Positions 21,961 to 30,737 of a DNA stretch of 64,000 nt are shown in pieces (the stretch's first letter is position 1; every line of letters begins with the position of its first letter). The stretch spans positions 55,800,001-55,864,000 of the forward strand of contig NC_086382.1 of NCBI RefSeq assembly GCF_036588685.1, in the 5' to 3' direction. The position numbers were made by a program, and so were the translations under genes. Below the pieces are notes generated by a model. That model did no database searches. It was not told the origin of the DNA and saw nothing but the letters and a program-made list of their open reading frames with translations. Source of the stretch: Mytilus trossulus. Taxonomy: Eukaryota.

Positions 21961-23133
21961 ATTTGCGGTTAGTTTTATTTCCAATAGGCGACTTTTTTAT
22001 TTTGTTATGTTTTTCAAATGCACTTAATTTCTTCAACGTCAGTTCATAAAGGTCATACAATTGTGTCGACACAATTTCTTTGAAGTTTTGTCTAATTGAC
22101 ATATACCTCTGGACTATAATTTATGTCAATTGAACAAATAATGATAGGGTTGGTGTAAATCATTCTCCGATTGTAGACGACAGAGTTGTGTTTAGAAGCA
22201 ATGAATGTCAGAAAATTTGAATTACTGCTTCATTAGACGTGTCTAGCTCTCATATAAACAAGCTTAACTTAATTTCATTATTTTTTTTCTATTCATTGTA
22301 AAGGTTTAGGAAGGGATTTTAATGTCTCTACAGAAAATGTATATAACTGTTTATGATTTCAAGAGTTCTTGCTGAAATAATTGTTCAATTCGTTTGCAAT
22401 ATCATTGTTTATACTTGTTTATAGTAAACACTAATATGTTTTAACGATTTTCCTTTATTTTCTTACACTTATTTGCATTTAATAGATACTAAAAGTATGT
22501 ATAATGTTTATGGCACTAAAATGGTGAAAAGATGTAGCTATATGGCGCCTATCTTCAAAAAATGGTTACAATTATTTTTTTTAATGCGCTACTATTCAAT
22601 GAACACTAAAACAAGTTAAAAACAATAATGAAGATAGTCGTTATCCAACACGTCAGTACCGATTTCTGAAAATAGCAGATAAACATTTAGAAATAGCACT
22701 TTAAGTGTTGGAATGTGGTAGTTTCAAAACATTTCCTTGAGAAATAAAATAATCTGTAGCACTTTAATGATAAGTTTAGTCGTTTGAATAAATTTACTTT
22801 ACAAATAAGGAGATTTGATTGCCAACGAGACAATTTTCAAGCAGAGTTTAAACTACACTGTTCTTAATTGACAATTTTTTTTCAAAGCAACTTCTAGTAA
22901 AACATTTTCATATTCATATTCATGAAAAGTTTATCGAATACTTATATTTTTTTTGAACTAGCAAAAACAACTTAAGTTTTCTCTGTTTTTATTATTTAAC
23001 AAAAATGATAGAACCACTTCAATCAGTCAAAACTTATTTTATTCATATGAGACCGATTTGGTTTCTTGAGAATAAAATATTTATAAAAGAACAATTTTTA
23101 GAAAGATTTGATATCAATTATGTCACCACTTAC

Positions 23134-23202
23134 AGTCCGGATCCCCAGGAGCAGTAACGTCCCAATGTTGTAAAACTGAAAACTACGCTTTACAATTTTC
23201 AT
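23134..23202 (-). CDS. Candidate first coding exon, signal-peptide-like (MKIVKRSFQFYNIGTLLLLGIRT)
   Basis: ATG at 23202, 23 codons, then a consensus GTAAGT donor. No downstream exon was identified. Confidence 0.2.
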
Positions 23203-24695
23203 GCGTCGTCTCTTATATATTAACAGATTAAATTTCTTATGTATATTAATTGAATTATTTTGCATAAAAAATAAGCTAAATGTTATCATACACTAAGTAC
23301 TATGTCAATTTTCTTCATAAAAATAGTTTTTAATATAGTTGTACTTGTTATATCTTACATAAAGTACAACTTTTCCCTAAAACAGATAGAAAGTGTAAAG
23401 CCTGAGATAAGTAACGGTCAATTAGCTTCTGGAGTGAAATATAGGTATTAATATTCAAGTTTAGGTTGTTATGCAATTTAAGGTAGATTCATGGTATACC
23501 GCCATCTTGCATTGTATAATCACAATACAAAATCGGTCTAGTTATTTGCCTCAATCTGCAAATTTGGAGACATATTTGCTATTCAATGGTTAGACTGTTT
23601 TTCTATTTAAAGAAAACTTGTTAATTAATCGTATTATACATAATATTTTAACAAATATAATCTGTTTTGGTTTTAAAATAAAAAATTTTCAAATGAGCCA
23701 TTTACGGTGAAATAACTCTTTTAGTACAACATTTATACTGGGCTAATAGGGATTTTTTTTATTTTTACTTGTAGCAAGAAAACAAGTTCCTACTATGTTT
23801 GACCTTAAGTCATATAGCAGCAACCAAATATTTATATCTTACAAGTTATTCTGTTGGCGATAAAATCATCTGAATAGATATAGGAAGATGTGGTGTGAGT
23901 GCCAATGAGACAACTCTCCATCCAAATAACAATTTAAAAATTAAACCATTATAGGTTAAAGTACGGCCTTCAACACGGAGCCTTGGCTCACACCGAACAA
24001 CAAGCTATAAAGGGCCCCAAAATTACTAGTGTAAAACCATTCAAACGGGAAAACCAACGGTCTAATCTATATAAACAAAACGAGAAACGAGAAACACGTA
24101 TATATTACATAAACAAACGACAACTACTGTACATCAGATTCCTGACTTAGGACAGGTGCAAACATTTGCAGCGGGATTAAACGTTTTAATGGGCCCAAAC
24201 CTTCTCCCTTTTTCTGAAACAATAGCATAACATCACAACATATAAAAACATATAAAAACATACGATAAAATATCAATTACCAGACTTAACTCAATCAAAA
24301 AACGTATGATTACACAAAGAACGAATAAATTTGATCTGCGATATCTGAATACAAATGCACAGTTAATTAAATATTAGAGACAAACAGTCATGACCAAAAG
24401 GCTATCAAACAAATTCAAACACACTGAGAAATATTTAACCAATCAATGTTCACTTTAGAAAAAAAACGTTTTTTTATAATCTTGAAGTTTATACAAATGT
24501 TGTAAGAATAAGTGAAAAATTGAAGATATTACAAATAATCAAAGCTGGTATACAGCCAAGATCCATATAAATAAAAAATGACAAAAAAGCAGTATAAACA
24601 GTATCAACAGGTCGAATTAACAAGAAAATACGATTTGAGAGTACTCGCAGTTACTGACAGCTAGTTAAAAGCCAAAACCAATTAATAGTAAAAAA

Positions 24696-24779
24696 TCATG
24701 CATCAGAGACTAAAATCGACTAAAACACATCACAGGGATTTAGTATTTTAACGTCATTAATAGTCAAAGAAGACATGAC
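24696..24779 (-). promoter_or_regulatory. Eukaryotic SECIS element (form 2-like) in the retroelement 3'UTR
   Basis: Minus strand reads GACUA UUA AUGAC GUUAAAAUAC UAAAUCCCUGUGAU GUGUUUUAGU CGAU UU UAGUC. Helix I is GACUA/UAGUC, the core is UGAC/CGAU (tandem G.A/A.G), helix II is 10 fully paired bp (WC/GU), followed by an apical A run and an AUC/GAU mini-stem. Confidence 0.88.
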
Positions 24780-24900
24780 TAGTGCAATGCCAAAAATAAA
24801 TGTATCGACAGGTAGTAGTATAGTGAAGAGCGACTTCTATAGAAATAAAAGTTAACGTGGCTGTGTCCCCTATACATCTCGTCTCAAAAGATAATGAAAT

Positions 24901-27900
24901 TTAGTTATGTTTTAATTTGCTAATGACAAAATCAATATTAGTGCCAATGTGAACTATATTCAGAGATCTAATTACAATATTGGTACGATAACCCTTACTT
25001 ATAAGTTTGTTTAAAGGTTCGATGAGTTTACAAGGATCACATAGTGATTTCCTCGCTTTAAGTACAATATTACCATAAAATTTAGGATGAGAAATACCAT
25101 TTTTAATAAGCTTTCTACAGGTATAGCCAAATTTACTAATCAAATCTTTGTATCTATGAAAGAATTTAGTAAAAGTTTTAAGTAATTTATGGTATCGAAA
25201 TCCCTGACACAACAATTTACCAGTGATGCATTGATTACGTTCGTTAAAATCTATGACATCAGAACACACACGGGCAAACCGAACGAGTTGCGATATATAA
25301 ACACCGTATGATGGAGCTAAAGGCACATCGCCGTCTAAAAAAGGAAAATTAACAATAGGAAATGAAAAATCGTCTCTTTTGTCGTAAATTTTAGTGTGAA
25401 GTTTCCCGTTTGAAATTGAAATGTCTAAATCTAGAAAAGGACAACTGCTGCTGTTTATGTTAGATTTAGTTAAAGTAAGTTCGTTTGGGTAAATTTCTGA
25501 AGTATATTTAGAGAACTCTGGATTATTCAACGAAAAACTATCATCCAGATAACGGTAGGTATTTTTGAATGTATCAACCAAATGTAACAATGATGGGTCT
25601 TTACTGAGTTTGGTCATAAACTGAAATTCATAGCAATATAGAAATAAATCTGCTATTAAAGGGGCACAGTTGGTGCCCATAGGAATACCTACTACCTGAC
25701 GATACACTTTATCGCCGAAACGTACATAAATGTTATCAAGCAGAAAGTTTAAAGCTTCAATCATATCCTCACATTTCCAGTAAGTGTATCTAGCATACTT
25801 TCCTTTTTCGTTACAGAAAAAGGCCTTAAACGAGTTACAGCAAATAAAATTACAATGAGATTTTTCGAAAGACCATTTTATCAAATACAAAAACTTTTTC
25901 TTTATAAGATTGTGTGGAAGTGTAGTGTACAGAGTAGAAAAATCATAACTGTCAACAGAATTGTAAGGACCATTGAAAGCATGTATTTTATCTAAAACCT
26001 CTAAAGAATTTTTAACACTCCAAAAATAATTAATACCATTATTTTCATAAGCTTTATTACAAAAGTTAATAACCAGTTCTTTGATAGTAGTAAGGGAGGT
26101 GGTTAGAAGCACTGATAGATTAGTAGTAGAACACTTACTCGAAGCGGAGATGAAACGGAATTTAAATGGTTTTTTGTGTAATTTCGGTAACCAGTACATG
26201 GTAGGGACTTTCAAATGTTCGGAAGATGCTTTAAACTGGGCAGTGGCAGTGGTATGCTTGTTAACGATTTGACTCTCTGTGGTGCGCACTGACCTGAATG
26301 TAGAGGAATTTATTATTTCGTTTTGAAGAACTGTCGTGTAGTATATGCGTCACACCACCACTACATTATTTGCTGCCTTGTCTGCCGGTACGAACACAAA
26401 CCGCTCTGCGAGTACCTTGAGTTTGTTTTTTATTCTAGAAATGGGTATATCATGGTTCCTATTATTAATTTCAGAATTGTTTTCTAAATGAGATATTCGA
26501 ATATCAACAGTATTCATAATTTTATTCAAATAACTGTCTAAAGATTTTTTATCGAATTTTTCACGTTTGCACCAATTTTTACAATAGGCAGACAGAGCGT
26601 CTTTAATGACCTGACGACACTGTTTCCAATCTATTGTAGACGGAGGACGGTATTTCGGTCCTTTCTTTAGAAAAGTTATGACTTCACGGTCATCGACTAT
26701 GTTGAGGTCTCCTGTGATAACATGACCATAGGGAACATATTTAAAACTAGATGTTTCGCAATCTCAAGTGGAAGGAACATTATTTTCTATATTGACGTCT
26801 GTTGTAATTGACGTATAATTGAAAATCAAATGTCTGCTCGGTTTTTTATAAGAATACGAAATAATGGGTTGTTCTATATTATCAAAATATGGAGGTATTA
26901 AGCTATAGACAGAAGAGTCATTGAATATGCTAGACAAATTAATAAAATCAATACCTCTATTTATATATTTTAATTTGAGAAAATGTCGTTTACGATTTTC
27001 AGGTTTATCAATAATAGGAAAAAGCCTGTGATGACAAAAGGCTGTAATAATACGGGTGTATCCATAAAATGGGCTAAAAAAAGAAATTTTATCACAATCA
27101 AGAAAAATAGCATATAATTTACTTATAGGTATCTGACCCAGTTTGCATAATACTTGATGTCTGCCATTATTCTTTATTATAGATAACAGATCAGCAAGTG
27201 TATAATTTATACGATGTTTAATACGTTGATTGCGGTTCTTGCGTTTACCATGAGACCTATTATTTCTAAGTCGTTTATCAACAATATTAATGACATCGAT
27301 ATGAGTTTTAGATATGTTCCCCTGCCCTAATATTTTATCATTTAGACCGAGAGGATAAGCTGTTTGAAGTCTTTTTATCCAAAACAATTCGCGAACTTCG
27401 CGTGATTTTTCAAATTGCTTGTGTGATTCTCCTGGTTGTTTTTGAACGGTTTCGAGCGGTTGGAATTTTATATATTTCAGAATATGATTATGCTTATCTA
27501 AATGCTGATATACTAAACTTTTGAATTTTTTGGGTCTACGAAAGCGGTACAGATGTTCTTGATTTCTTCTGAAATACTCTCGTCCCGTCTGTCCCACATA
27601 TTGAATACCACACTTAGGTTGGGTTCAAGTTACCACATATATTAGGTTTTGAGTTTTTCAGGTAATATCACAGGAAAAGGAAAGCGAAAAGGTTCTCCCG
27701 TTCACTGTTGACCTTATAGTATTTTGAGAAGTTAATCTAAAACAAGTTAGTCATTTTTTGGCATTGCACGGGAAAATTTGTGGATATCCACGTGCATTTT
27801 TGTTAAATAATCTGGCTGTAGTGGCATTACCAATACGTTTATTTATGCACGTAGATAACCTAGAAGTTGTGTTGTTGATAATATTTTTTGTCTTCTGTAT

Positions 27901-27966
27901 TACACAGATTATAATTGTAAGTTTTCAAGAGGAAAAAAAGGCCACTGTCAAAAAGGAATGAATCAT
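24901..27966 (-). CDS. GIY-YIG endonuclease/reverse transcriptase protein (~1020 aa) with 5-6 in-frame UGA codons, predicted selenoprotein
   Basis: Hand translation joins track ORFs 26764-27597 and 24901-26289 in the same frame. The only interruptions are TGA at 27751-53, 27658-60, 27625-27, 26764-66 and 26350-52, plus 27925-27 if the nearest upstream in-frame ATG (27966) is used. The frame ends at TAA 24901-03. The start codon is uncertain. Confidence 0.88.
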
Positions 27967-28859
27967 GACAAAAATGAATGAATCATGACAAAAATTTATG
28001 CAATATTTCGTATTATACTATATATGATGTGTCCCCGTCGAAAATGGATTATAAATCTGATGAAGATGACAACAAACACATTTAAAATAGAGAGACTATT
28101 GATAAAAGATTCATTTACTGATAGAAACAAGCTATACAAATTATTGGAATTACTTTTGTTAATGATAAGATTTATTTGGCGCCCTTTTATAATTCAGATG
28201 TTATAACATATTATTCACAAAATGAAAGAATTACACGATACTATTGACACAAATGAATATTCTGCATTATGGGAACCCCTGATATTGTTTAGAATAATTA
28301 ATTGATGATAAATTAAACCACTATGTAGCCAAAATATTTTTTTGTCTTTCTTCGCTTATGCTTGACCTCACGGTGATATAAAAAATGACACCCTGTAAAG
28401 TCTCCAGGTTAAATAATATTTTTTTGATTTTGCAATTTCAGACATTAAATAATTTCCTTATCATGGTAAAAAGTACATTCTCCTCTCAAATAAAAGACTT
28501 ACTTTGCTAACTCAAGTTACTTTATATAACATTAATTACAGCAAATGCACCATGTATGTGTGGCATTGAAAGTGTAAAATTACGACCATTAGCTTAGAGT
28601 GCGAGTTTATCGAATTATTTTTTTTTATGTTCCCAGACATATTAAAACGAAAACCGATCTATTACAAACTTTGCTTTTAGAGAAAGATATTTCACGTAAA
28701 AATACACATAGCATGTTTCATGAAATATTACTAGATGTCATTTAACTCATGTTGACTACATTGAAAATATAATAACTACGTTGTAATCCCGACACATTCT
28801 TGTGGTCCTATTTTTCACATACTGAAATATTTCTATTGTTATTTTCTTTTTCGCCAATA

Positions 28860-29270
28860 CTTGGGACAGCGGTTAGGACATCCTAGCTAAGATCATCCTC
28901 AACTAGCTTCGATGTGCATGCTGAGAAATGTTGTAAGTCGGTCCTAATTTATCATAATGTATGTCCTAAGAATGTCTTATAGGACCGATCTTAATAGGAC
29001 AGTTTCGATAACATAAACATCTAAAAATGTTATTATGTAACAAAAATATTTTCTTTTAAATGAGAAAAAAAATCCTTTATTTACTTGCACATTTCTTTAT
29101 AATTTAGGCATTAATCTTAATGCCTGCAAACATTTTTCATTATTTAAGCTTAAATCCTAGGATTTAAGACTAATGCCTAACATCATTTAGGCAATAGACT
29201 TACTGCCTAAGCGTTAGCTTATTGCCTAGGATTTAAGCTTAATGCCTAATTTCACTTATTGCCGCTAACA
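28860..29270. repeat. Low-complexity arrays of short inverted motifs (taggac/gtccta; taggcattaa/ttaatgccta), likely MITE remnants
   Basis: Repeated motifs visible in both orientations. Confidence 0.45.
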
Positions 29271-30737
29271 TATATACCGGTATTTATATATCTTTACTTC
29301 TACATTTTCTTTTTCAGATGTGTGATGATATAAGAAAAGTGTGTTGAAAGAATTTCCCTCTTTTCCAACATTGACTTGTGCACTAGGATTTAAACATTCC
29401 TCTGTAAGGTAGGTCGAAATTATTTTTTATGTCTTAATGTAATCCTTTTAAATAATAATATTCGTGTATCCTATTGCTGTCTCATTGGAAATCATATTAA
29501 TGATTAAAGGTATAGTAGCCCTTGTACATGAGACAAATCAAAACTAAGAGAATATCAGGAACTGCAAAAAGAGTTGCGTCCACATGATAAGTGTTTGATT
29601 ATATATAAGTCTGCATTATCCTCCAGGCGATTCATCACTCAGTTTAAATGTCACAAGTGTCGACTATTCTTGCATCTCAGTTCGAAGACTGCGAACACAT
29701 GTTGGGAATGTATTTCGGCACAGTTACTGCTTTAAACGGCATCAAGGTAGAATGATTGTAGAAATATTCGTACATATATAAATTTAGCTGCGGCGCCGTA
29801 GCTCTTAGGTCCTTATGTTAATTTTCTACTTTTTCAGGACCATAGAGCTACGGATTTTTCCTATTTCAAAACGTTCGACATTGCGACCTAGGTTCAGGTG
29901 GCACTTATTTCTCAACAATTTATTGTTTATAATCAGTGCAAAGCTTTTCAATATATACAGTTCGTTTCGTTATATTTTTATCAAGAAATGACGTACCTAA
30001 ATAAATAGATAATGTTTTAATAGGATACTAATTTAATCTTGTAATTTTTTGACACTTATCAATTCACGGAGTCAAACTTCATGGCAGAGTGCAAAAACAG
30101 TCGATATACGCCAAAGAGACTCTATATTCATTTCTTAAGACAATGACACTACCCCAAAAGATATCGGTATATCATATATGATTTAAAACTGGCTGATTGG
30201 AAGTGAAACAAGCCAAGTAAAGAAAACACGTACATTCTTGGTTACTCGTTTCCTTTATTGAAGTTTGGTTGTCAGATTCCTAGAATCATTGCATGAAAGT
30301 ACTTTATTATCACTGGTAATTCGATGTGATTAAAAATAATGAAAGTTCGCTTGAAGTTAATTCAATACCAGATAAATGGACTGTGTTACTTCCTATACAA
30401 CTCACTAGTAAAGATAAATCACAAAGGCTTACATAATTTATTTTGTATCAGGAATGTTTTTATTTTATCAAATCTGACGACTTGTTGCTTTTATTGGAGA
30501 CTGAAACATTGCTTGTCTAACATATTGGTTTTAAAGTAACTGGACTTTTCCAATCGCCATTATGTATAGGACGAAAGTTATCATGTGTCTGTGCTTGATA
30601 TGTTTGTCATACTTTCGACAAGTCTCGTATAGTCCATCGCATATTCATACTGGTTCTGCAGTTGAACGTGTCAAGTACGGATAACCGGACCTCGAAAATT
30701 ACTTGACAGTGCCAGAGACCACACCATAAATCATATA

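Follow-up and report, generated by a model that had tools for sequence, protein, structure and literature searches.

A truncated young Naiad retrotransposon of Mytilus trossulus with five in-frame UGA codons, likely read as selenocysteine at invariant cysteine positions

The window analyzed here, a stretch of 64,000 nt of Mytilus trossulus DNA (NC_086382.1, positions 55,800,001 to 55,864,000), carries a copy, truncated at its 5' end, of a Penelope-like retrotransposon of the Naiad type; the young family to which it belongs is called family A here. We consider it probable that the five in-frame UGA codons of this truncated young Naiad encode selenocysteine (Sec) through a single SECIS element in the 3' UTR, that they occupy invariant cysteines with a likely role in metal ligation, and that their placement ahead of the reverse transcriptase (RT) core is a by-product of this choice of sites and not a selenium switch. 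Standard annotation would call such Sec Naiads broken. The element and its parts are as follows:

23873..27889, minus strand: family A Naiad copy, 5'-truncated (BLASTN of 30 genomic copies, boundaries in common, junctions)
24901..27888, minus strand: frame that encodes EN-RT, from residue 7 to residue 1001 of the family protein, ending in TAA 24903-24901, start codon lost
27337..27768, minus strand: GIY-YIG endonuclease and two Cys-rich motifs (about aa 47-190), with conserved Y90, Y103, G105, R114, H118, H135, H141, E173 and N189
26350..26853, minus strand: domain aligning with the telomerase RNA-binding domain (about aa 352-519), with CxC, invariant H395 and the DKA hairpin
24904..26349, minus strand: RT fingers, palm and thumb (482 aa); its 16 Cys codons are TGY throughout, and no Cys is conserved at 90% or more
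23873..24900, minus strand: 3' UTR; the same stretch makes upstream pseudo-LTRs in other copies (e.g. L004, L010, L013, L014, L026 and L028)
27925..27927, minus strand: in-frame TGA in the host flank, outside the element by the copy boundaries, probably the sixth Sec of the preliminary description

A DNA search of the genome with the element of the window returned at least 40 scored matches with identities of 97-100%, and 30 of these were used for the comparison of copies. Their alignment set the element ends at 27889 and 23873. The full-length family A element measures about 4.45 kb and the copy in the window 4017 nt, with about 435 nt extra at the 5' end of full copies. In 26/30 family A loci a start codon lies about 18 nt above the truncation point, and the window copy has no ATG. 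In addition, nine of its residues deviate from the commonest codon among copies, one of them adjoining the catalytic YLDD. Therefore, the window copy is probably inactive. When UGA is read as sense, 9/29 other family A copies are open to the end, and the family protein has 1001 aa with U52, U83, U94, U381 and U519. The minus-strand frame that runs from the host flank to the TAA contains six TGA, five of them inside the element. An earlier count of five to six Sec insertions was thus right for five; the sixth TGA (27927) and an upstream ATG (27966) were rejected because both lie in the host flank, beyond the truncation point 27889.

Several features identify the element as a Naiad. There is one ORF, in which a GIY-YIG domain at the N-terminus is followed by a telomerase-like RT, and translation and conservation revealed all the motifs CX2-5CxxC, CCHH, KR block, CxC, GxKY and DKA. 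Copies show 5' truncation and partial tandems (pseudo-LTRs), and the length of about 4.45 kb is at the upper edge of the body of about 3.4-4.4 kb. PF01541 is present in many homologs of the family A protein; a Pfam scan of the window protein matched no family, and a PDB sequence search gave no match. Hammerhead ribozymes had no Rfam match in window positions 23000-30000 (E up to 5) or in loci L004 and L102 (E up to 3).

The five UGA codons are distributed as follows:

27751..27753, minus strand: U52, second Cys of CX4CxxC; Cys in 70/70 aligned homologs, TGA in 28/30 copies
27658..27660, minus strand: U83, Cys ahead of the GIY-YIG motif; Cys in 74/74, Sec too in clam and spider Naiads
27625..27627, minus strand: U94, first Cys of CCHH; Cys in 77/77, Sec too in clam Naiads
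26764..26766, minus strand: U381, first Cys of CxC; Cys in 81/81, Cys in family B, U in 11/23 Sec clusters
26350..26352, minus strand: U519, Cys eight residues past DKA; Cys in 80/81

All five in-frame UGAs (5/5) align to conserved cysteines, as in eukaryotic selenoproteins. The codons are fixed across the family, with TGA in 30/30 copies at four sites and in 28/30 at 27753, where two copies have TTA. Genome-wide, the family A site 519 carries 183 TGA, 1 TGG and 1 TGC, as counted with exact 24-nt tags in at least 185 copies. From these data we infer that the five UGAs are decoded as Sec and that full-length copies make one EN-RT selenoprotein of 1001 aa; production of the full-length protein would likely need five Sec insertions. 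The preliminary description had placed three UGAs in the Cys-rich/GIY-YIG region and one in the CxC motif, in agreement with our positions 27753, 27660, 27627 and 26766. Its statement that all Sec precede the RT core holds here for the catalytic core, but the last two lie inside the region that aligns with the telomerase RNA-binding domain. It also described an RT part of 462 aa with all Cys as TGY; the 16 cysteines are indeed all TGY, but the length after the last UGA is 482 aa. One intact copy (L020) has a private TGT to TGA change at C956, which gives a sixth UGA near the C-terminus.

One candidate for the decoding signal was found:

24708..24765, minus strand: SECIS, about 135 nt past the stop codon; Rfam SECIS_1 28.4 bits (gathering score 35), E 0.022

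This SECIS, read from 24765 to 24708, is the only descriptor match in the 4017-nt element, where 0.02 are expected per shuffled UTR. The earlier report of one SECIS only was confirmed, as the descriptor detected no second SECIS in the 4017-nt element. The Rfam SECIS scores of 28.4 and 32.8 are both under the gathering score of 35, and one Rfam scan missed the family A SECIS in locus L115. The SECIS tracks the UGAs in the genome, where it was found in 10/10 loci of family A, 26/27 of family B (the second Sec family, described below) and 0/15 of Cys families, loci including duplicates. Among metagenome loci it was found in 13/21 with UGA versus 0/18 without. The host genome has two tRNA-Sec genes. 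Stimulatory stems after the UGA were absent at the nine UGAs examined (z from -0.04 to +0.81). As far as the parts of two publications drawn on here go (PMC5727441, PMC8704476), Sec insertion in mammals is inefficient at a first UGA and can respond to selenium, is more efficient or processive in vitro past a first UGA, and one SECIS is able to serve any in-frame UGA.

RNA reads from four runs, of an organism that is perhaps not the species of the window, were aligned to copy L010. Depth was 0-2 over the endonuclease part, the 5' half was barely covered, and high depth was confined to the final few hundred bases at the 3' end. No GT-AG joint was among those listed for the reads, and one 70-nt non-canonical skip was seen in the thumb. 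Three runs gave heavy unstranded coverage of the last 370 nt (L010:605-975), with flanks that were unlike each other, and the SECIS stretch was far less covered; this coverage represents short 3' ends carried by host transcripts. One run contained small RNAs of about 30 nt, piRNA-sized, from both strands of the L010 3' UTR (e.g. 134-163 and 497-526). Silencing is a more ordinary brake on the element than selenium.

The location of the UGAs was compared with cysteine conservation in an alignment of 81 of the 120 homologs listed, those of 840-1150 aa; the homolog search scored aa 40-560 and may favor N-terminal likeness and conservation. All five UGAs are on columns with at least 99% Cys in these 81 homologs. 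Nine Cys columns are conserved at 90% or more (65 or more of the 81 homologs aligned), and every one is at or before 519, while the 16 cysteines after 519 are at most 80% conserved. C20 was counted as variable, being 96% Cys in an alignment of 23 sequences alone and Arg in family B. Conservation is not poor in the RT part, where 50 columns, all of residues other than Cys, exceed 90%. The raw positional split of Sec among Cys/Sec codons, 5/17 before versus 0/16 after, gives p=0.044, and Sec is found on 5/9 invariant versus 0/24 other cysteines (p=0.0005). Among non-invariant cysteines the figures are 0/8 before and 0/16 after, so no positional effect is left once conservation is counted. The N-terminal bias of Sec thus follows from the fact that invariant cysteines all lie at or before 519, and it is the location of these cysteines, not a switch, that likely accounts for UGAs standing ahead of the RT core. 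The earlier proposal that this position forms a selenium gate is not supported, since position tracks the invariant cysteines and relatives carry UGA inside RT. Moreover, any UGA before the C-terminus gates the full-length protein, so that position alone is uninformative on gating.

The genome harbors a second Sec Naiad, family B (L093-L109), which is 62% identical to family A and has its own SECIS, four UGAs and Cys in CxC. The two families are saturated at synonymous sites (pS 0.70-0.89), and between them each segment delimited by UGAs is under purifying selection (dN 0.24-0.42 versus saturated dS). TGA is shared at 4/5 sites, versus a neutral retention of 16/47 for four-fold A (p=0.049) and 3/19 for Ile ATA (p=0.003). 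Because Cys lineages lie between A and B, the UGA that both have at 519 may have been retained, or gained in parallel. Marine metagenomes gave 80 loci, 79 of them usable (L219 has no usable frame), in 60 clusters at 85% identity, and 26/60 clusters have U at an invariant site. Across the Sec clusters U was counted in 0/9 at aa 47, 3/9 at 52, 0/9 at 55, 7/11 at 83, 10/11 at 94, 0/11 at 99, 11/23 at 381, 0/23 at 383 and 23/25 at 519. Three invariant cysteines never became Sec, and others often did. That all Sec precede RT is no rule of the clade: UGAs after 519 occur in the thumb in L160 and L162 (contigs 99.7% identical), just ahead of the first RT motif in L164 and L207 (95.8% identical), on single contigs in L157 and L182, and in the published Naiad_Scon. 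Single-contig UGAs at non-invariant positions before 519 were seen in L153, L155, L204 and L226 and represent Sec or decay. Three marine metagenome contigs (L151, L152 and L165) are 99-100% identical to the family A protein and probably derive from host DNA that the samples contained.

Where proteins in databases have W at Sec columns, UGA has been read in two ways: other members of the same clusters terminate at 380 or 518, or begin at 521. In P0013, which belongs to an all-Cys group, the W at 519 was taken for a probable single mutation. In an RT tree of 24 sequences, made without the metagenome clusters, Sec-bearing proteins form one clade with 100/100 support, which includes the all-Cys P0146. 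The position of P0146 inside this clade has no resolution, and Cys-519 lineages nest among U-519 ones. Tree and states together imply three or more changes of state at 519 within the subclade of A and B. Repeated U/C exchange at 381 and 519, together with the all-Cys member of the Sec clade, suggests that any benefit of Sec is modest.

The AlphaFold model of the family A protein has a pLDDT of 87.7, and its structural matches are telomerases (best) and other polymerases. TERT alignments (VIA) start at aa 350-357 in most rows, with Z of 14-19, while most other RTs start near 510-550. U381 and U519 therefore fall inside the part that matches the telomerase RNA-binding domain. In a fold search with the isolated aa 296-545, the best Z was 5.5 and TERT was at rank 10. 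Covariation by mutual information was noisy, and its 381-519 signal stems from shared Sec states. The alignment of 81 homologs contains 12 invariant candidate ligands, the nine Cys/Sec and H135, H141 and H395; H118 was set aside as catalytic, after the part of PMC8557442 drawn on here. These residues could make up three four-ligand sites, C47/U52/C55/U83, U94/C99/H135/H141 and U381/C383/H395/U519. Three putative metal sites are likely on this basis, the grouping being derived from ligand count and co-occurrence, and U519 would likely be the fourth ligand of the predicted CxC-His site. The metal is most likely zinc, with an iron-sulfur cluster possible at the third site. By eye, a Cys after DK is present in 7/7 visible Chlamys sequences and in 0/4 of Hydra and 0/2 of Physarum Pp. 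Since Chlamys is a group with CxC, this fits the Cys belonging with CxC; Hydra is described without CxC in the portion of PMC8557442 used, in which the authors also call the Zn-finger label tentative and find CxC weakly like iron-binding CDGSH fingers. The previous remark that UxxC and UxC lie in putative Zn-binding rather than oxidoreductase motifs agrees with our results, as the Cys-rich motifs resemble metal sites and not a thioredoxin-type active site. Sec is a metal ligand in prokaryotic formate dehydrogenases and NiFeSe hydrogenases. No report of a natural Sec-zinc site was found in the literature searched, most subscription journals being outside its coverage.

At particular ligand positions Sec may be retained for a benefit that it brings, for instance as a fully ionised selenolate that binds metal, while UGA elsewhere would cost yield and be purged. 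On these grounds we tentatively propose, as a reading that is plausible and still short of probable, that a widespread marine retrotransposon clade encodes Sec to bind metal in a structural role, at selected positions of three sites; one of these sites would connect CxC with the DKA hairpin of a telomerase-like RNA-binding domain. If true, a eukaryote would have zinc sites with Sec as a natural ligand, which evolve by repeated Cys/Sec exchange, and one genome would contain active Sec and Cys versions together; a mild selenium dependence of transposition would come along.

The preliminary description interpreted the UGAs as a possible adaptive selenium gate, in which stacked pre-RT UGAs hold back the full-length protein, make transposition dependent on selenium supply and, where insertion fails, let out a product with the endonuclease alone. 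Five insertions would depend on one SECIS with no stimulatory stem after the UGAs, and independent insertion at 50% each would leave 3% full-length protein; some SECIS elements respond about two-fold to selenium, according to the sections of PMC5727441 drawn on here, and across the clade most UGAs lie at or before 519. As a test of the throttle, copy number was estimated for both Sec families and two Cys families by exact-match 24-nt tags at the 519-homologous site, giving lower bounds. Family A has at least 185 tagged copies, family B at least 631 and the two all-Cys families at least 198 and at least 239. The tags recovered 20/21, 25/29, 8/9 and 8/9 of the sampled loci of A, B and the two Cys families, respectively, and mean within-family identity is 99.4, 99.2, 94.8 and 98.8%; one Cys family is thus more diverged (94.8%), and copy number has many causes. 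Family A, with five Sec, has fewer tagged copies than the four-Sec family B, as a gate would have it. B is the most numerous of the four families counted, with TGA at the 519 site in 99 of the first 100 matches listed. In this genome, Sec families equal Cys families in number of copies and in youth, and the claim that stacked Sec throttles activity finds no sign of a strong brake in these counts. Some throttling and selenium dependence are expected as a side effect, without visible limit on amplification. Furthermore, a Cys variant at 519 occurs in 1/185 copies, is decayed and 93% identical, and has not spread. UGA position is accounted for by the invariant cysteines, and UGAs beyond 519 in the relatives listed above also speak against a gate. 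A read-through switch would call for a conserved leaky stop at a domain boundary, but 381 is Cys in family B and in 12/23 Sec clusters, and 519 is Cys in 2/25. The endonuclease-only product, which had been predicted from a stop at 26764, would need three Sec successes and then a failure at this very site, where about half of the Sec clusters have Cys. If insertion past a first UGA is more processive, as described in vitro in the parts of PMC5727441 and PMC8704476 consulted, failure would mainly yield a 51-aa peptide and not an endonuclease. With a selenium switch, if true, genome change would be tied to a trace element from the environment; the genomic evidence leans against it, and we regard the gate as unlikely.

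Redox-active Sec in U-x-x-C, U-x4-C and U-x-C pairs might instead, under oxidative stress, protect the endonuclease and the RNA-binding domain or switch them reversibly, whether or not metal is released. Eukaryotic selenoproteins known so far are mostly redox enzymes, and in each close pair Sec comes first and the partner stays Cys (55, 99 and 383 are never U). However, invariant His and lone Cys complete the four-ligand sets, the structural matches of the model are polymerases, telomerases included, and all-Cys families of the same genome amplify equally well, which makes this explanation improbable. Near-neutral exchange, in which a SECIS was captured and Cys and Sec codons then swapped by drift without benefit, would account for the split of 11 U to 12 C at 381, for the repeated changes of state at 519 in the A and B subclade and for P0146 within the Sec clade. 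Drift does not explain why three invariant sites and nearly all variable cysteines are never UGA while 94 and 519 are nearly always so, or why spider Naiads, of separate origin in the text of PMC8557442 available, also use 83 and 519; it is very unlikely. The thin RNA coverage of the 5' half leaves some room for true stops, or for removal of the UGAs by splicing or editing, but the TGAs are fixed at conserved cysteines, every segment is under purifying selection, the SECIS occurs in UGA families only and 9/29 other copies are open to the end with UGA read; we give this alternative hardly any weight.

Four selenoprotein Naiads were published in 2021, each with three or four UGAs at conserved cysteines (Craig et al. 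2021, PMC8557442). In the sections of that paper drawn on here, all four have Sec at the equivalents of 83 and 519, Naiad_Scon has one UGA in RT6, and none of the mussel Naiad families is listed with UGA. The clam Naiad_Scon and Naiad_Mmer, as presented in those sections, resemble family A in the N-terminal GIY-YIG domain, CxC, DKA and a SECIS in the 3' UTR, as well as in Sec before GIY-YIG, at the first CCHH Cys and eight residues after DKA, with flanking motifs that are close by eye. They have three or four Sec, whereas family A has five, the extra ones at 52 and in CxC; their SECIS is 1-21 nt past the stop and that of family A about 135 nt; and the UGA in RT6 of Naiad_Scon has no counterpart in family A. 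An origin independent of the clam Naiads, which had been suggested for testing, looks unlikely, given the three Sec sites and flanking motifs in common by eye. The spider Naiad_Sdum and Naiad_Smim share Sec at the 83 and 519 equivalents with family A, and Naiad_Sdum also at 52. In what the paper presents of them, spider Naiads differ in having Sec at the first Cys of CX2-5CxxC (47, U in none of 9 clusters here) and in keeping Cys at 94, and spider Sec Naiads are given a separate origin (PMC8557442). All-Cys Naiads of the mussel genome (L073/L087, Naiad_Mgal-like by eye, and the L075 family) have the same domain order, nine Cys and similar youth and tag counts, but have no UGA, no SECIS in the 15 loci and a position outside the Sec clade. 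Like family A, selenoprotein P has several UGAs decoded on one mRNA, from the parts of PMC5727441 and PMC8704476 used. Vertebrate SELENOP has two SECIS and coding stems, whereas family A has one SECIS and no stem after its UGAs. The Sec residues of SELENOP serve transport and are not at conserved motif positions. Telomerase reverse transcriptase is the best structural match to family A over about aa 350-950, at about 10-14% identity, and to our knowledge has no N-terminal GIY-YIG domain and no Sec.

New in this work are two Sec families in a mussel genome, Sec in CxC and 26 Sec-bearing marine metagenome clusters. Sec at CxC (U381) is not among the sites reported in the 2021 sections referred to above (PMC8557442). 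No report testing Naiad Sec or describing mussel Sec Naiads was found in the literature searched, with most subscription journals outside coverage. The map of invariant cysteines that do and do not become Sec makes the use of Sec versus Cys outside redox catalysis testable, and Sec and Cys families within one genome constitute a natural control.

Some features of the leaders and flanks were also observed. The 5' leader of full family A copies (L004:1175-1441), mostly missing from the window, contains an 88-aa uORF with a hydrophobic N-terminus, which overlaps, in a different frame, with the main ATG. Of 23 family A copies examined, 13 have this uORF at full length and seven have it cut by a 2-nt deletion; the family B leader has no such uORF. 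Several upstream ATGs in the leaders of A and B suggest that initiation itself is limiting. The first 40 nt of these otherwise unrelated leaders (L004, about 980-1020; L102) contain motifs of about 35 nt that resemble each other and may represent a promoter or RNA element. Outside the element, window positions 29100-29260 hold an imperfect inverted repeat with weak microRNA-family matches, probably a small repeat. On genome contig C10, tandem arrays of a tRNA-like unit with a spacing of about 890-900 nt were found at 63843916-63855579 and 64461689-64492367.
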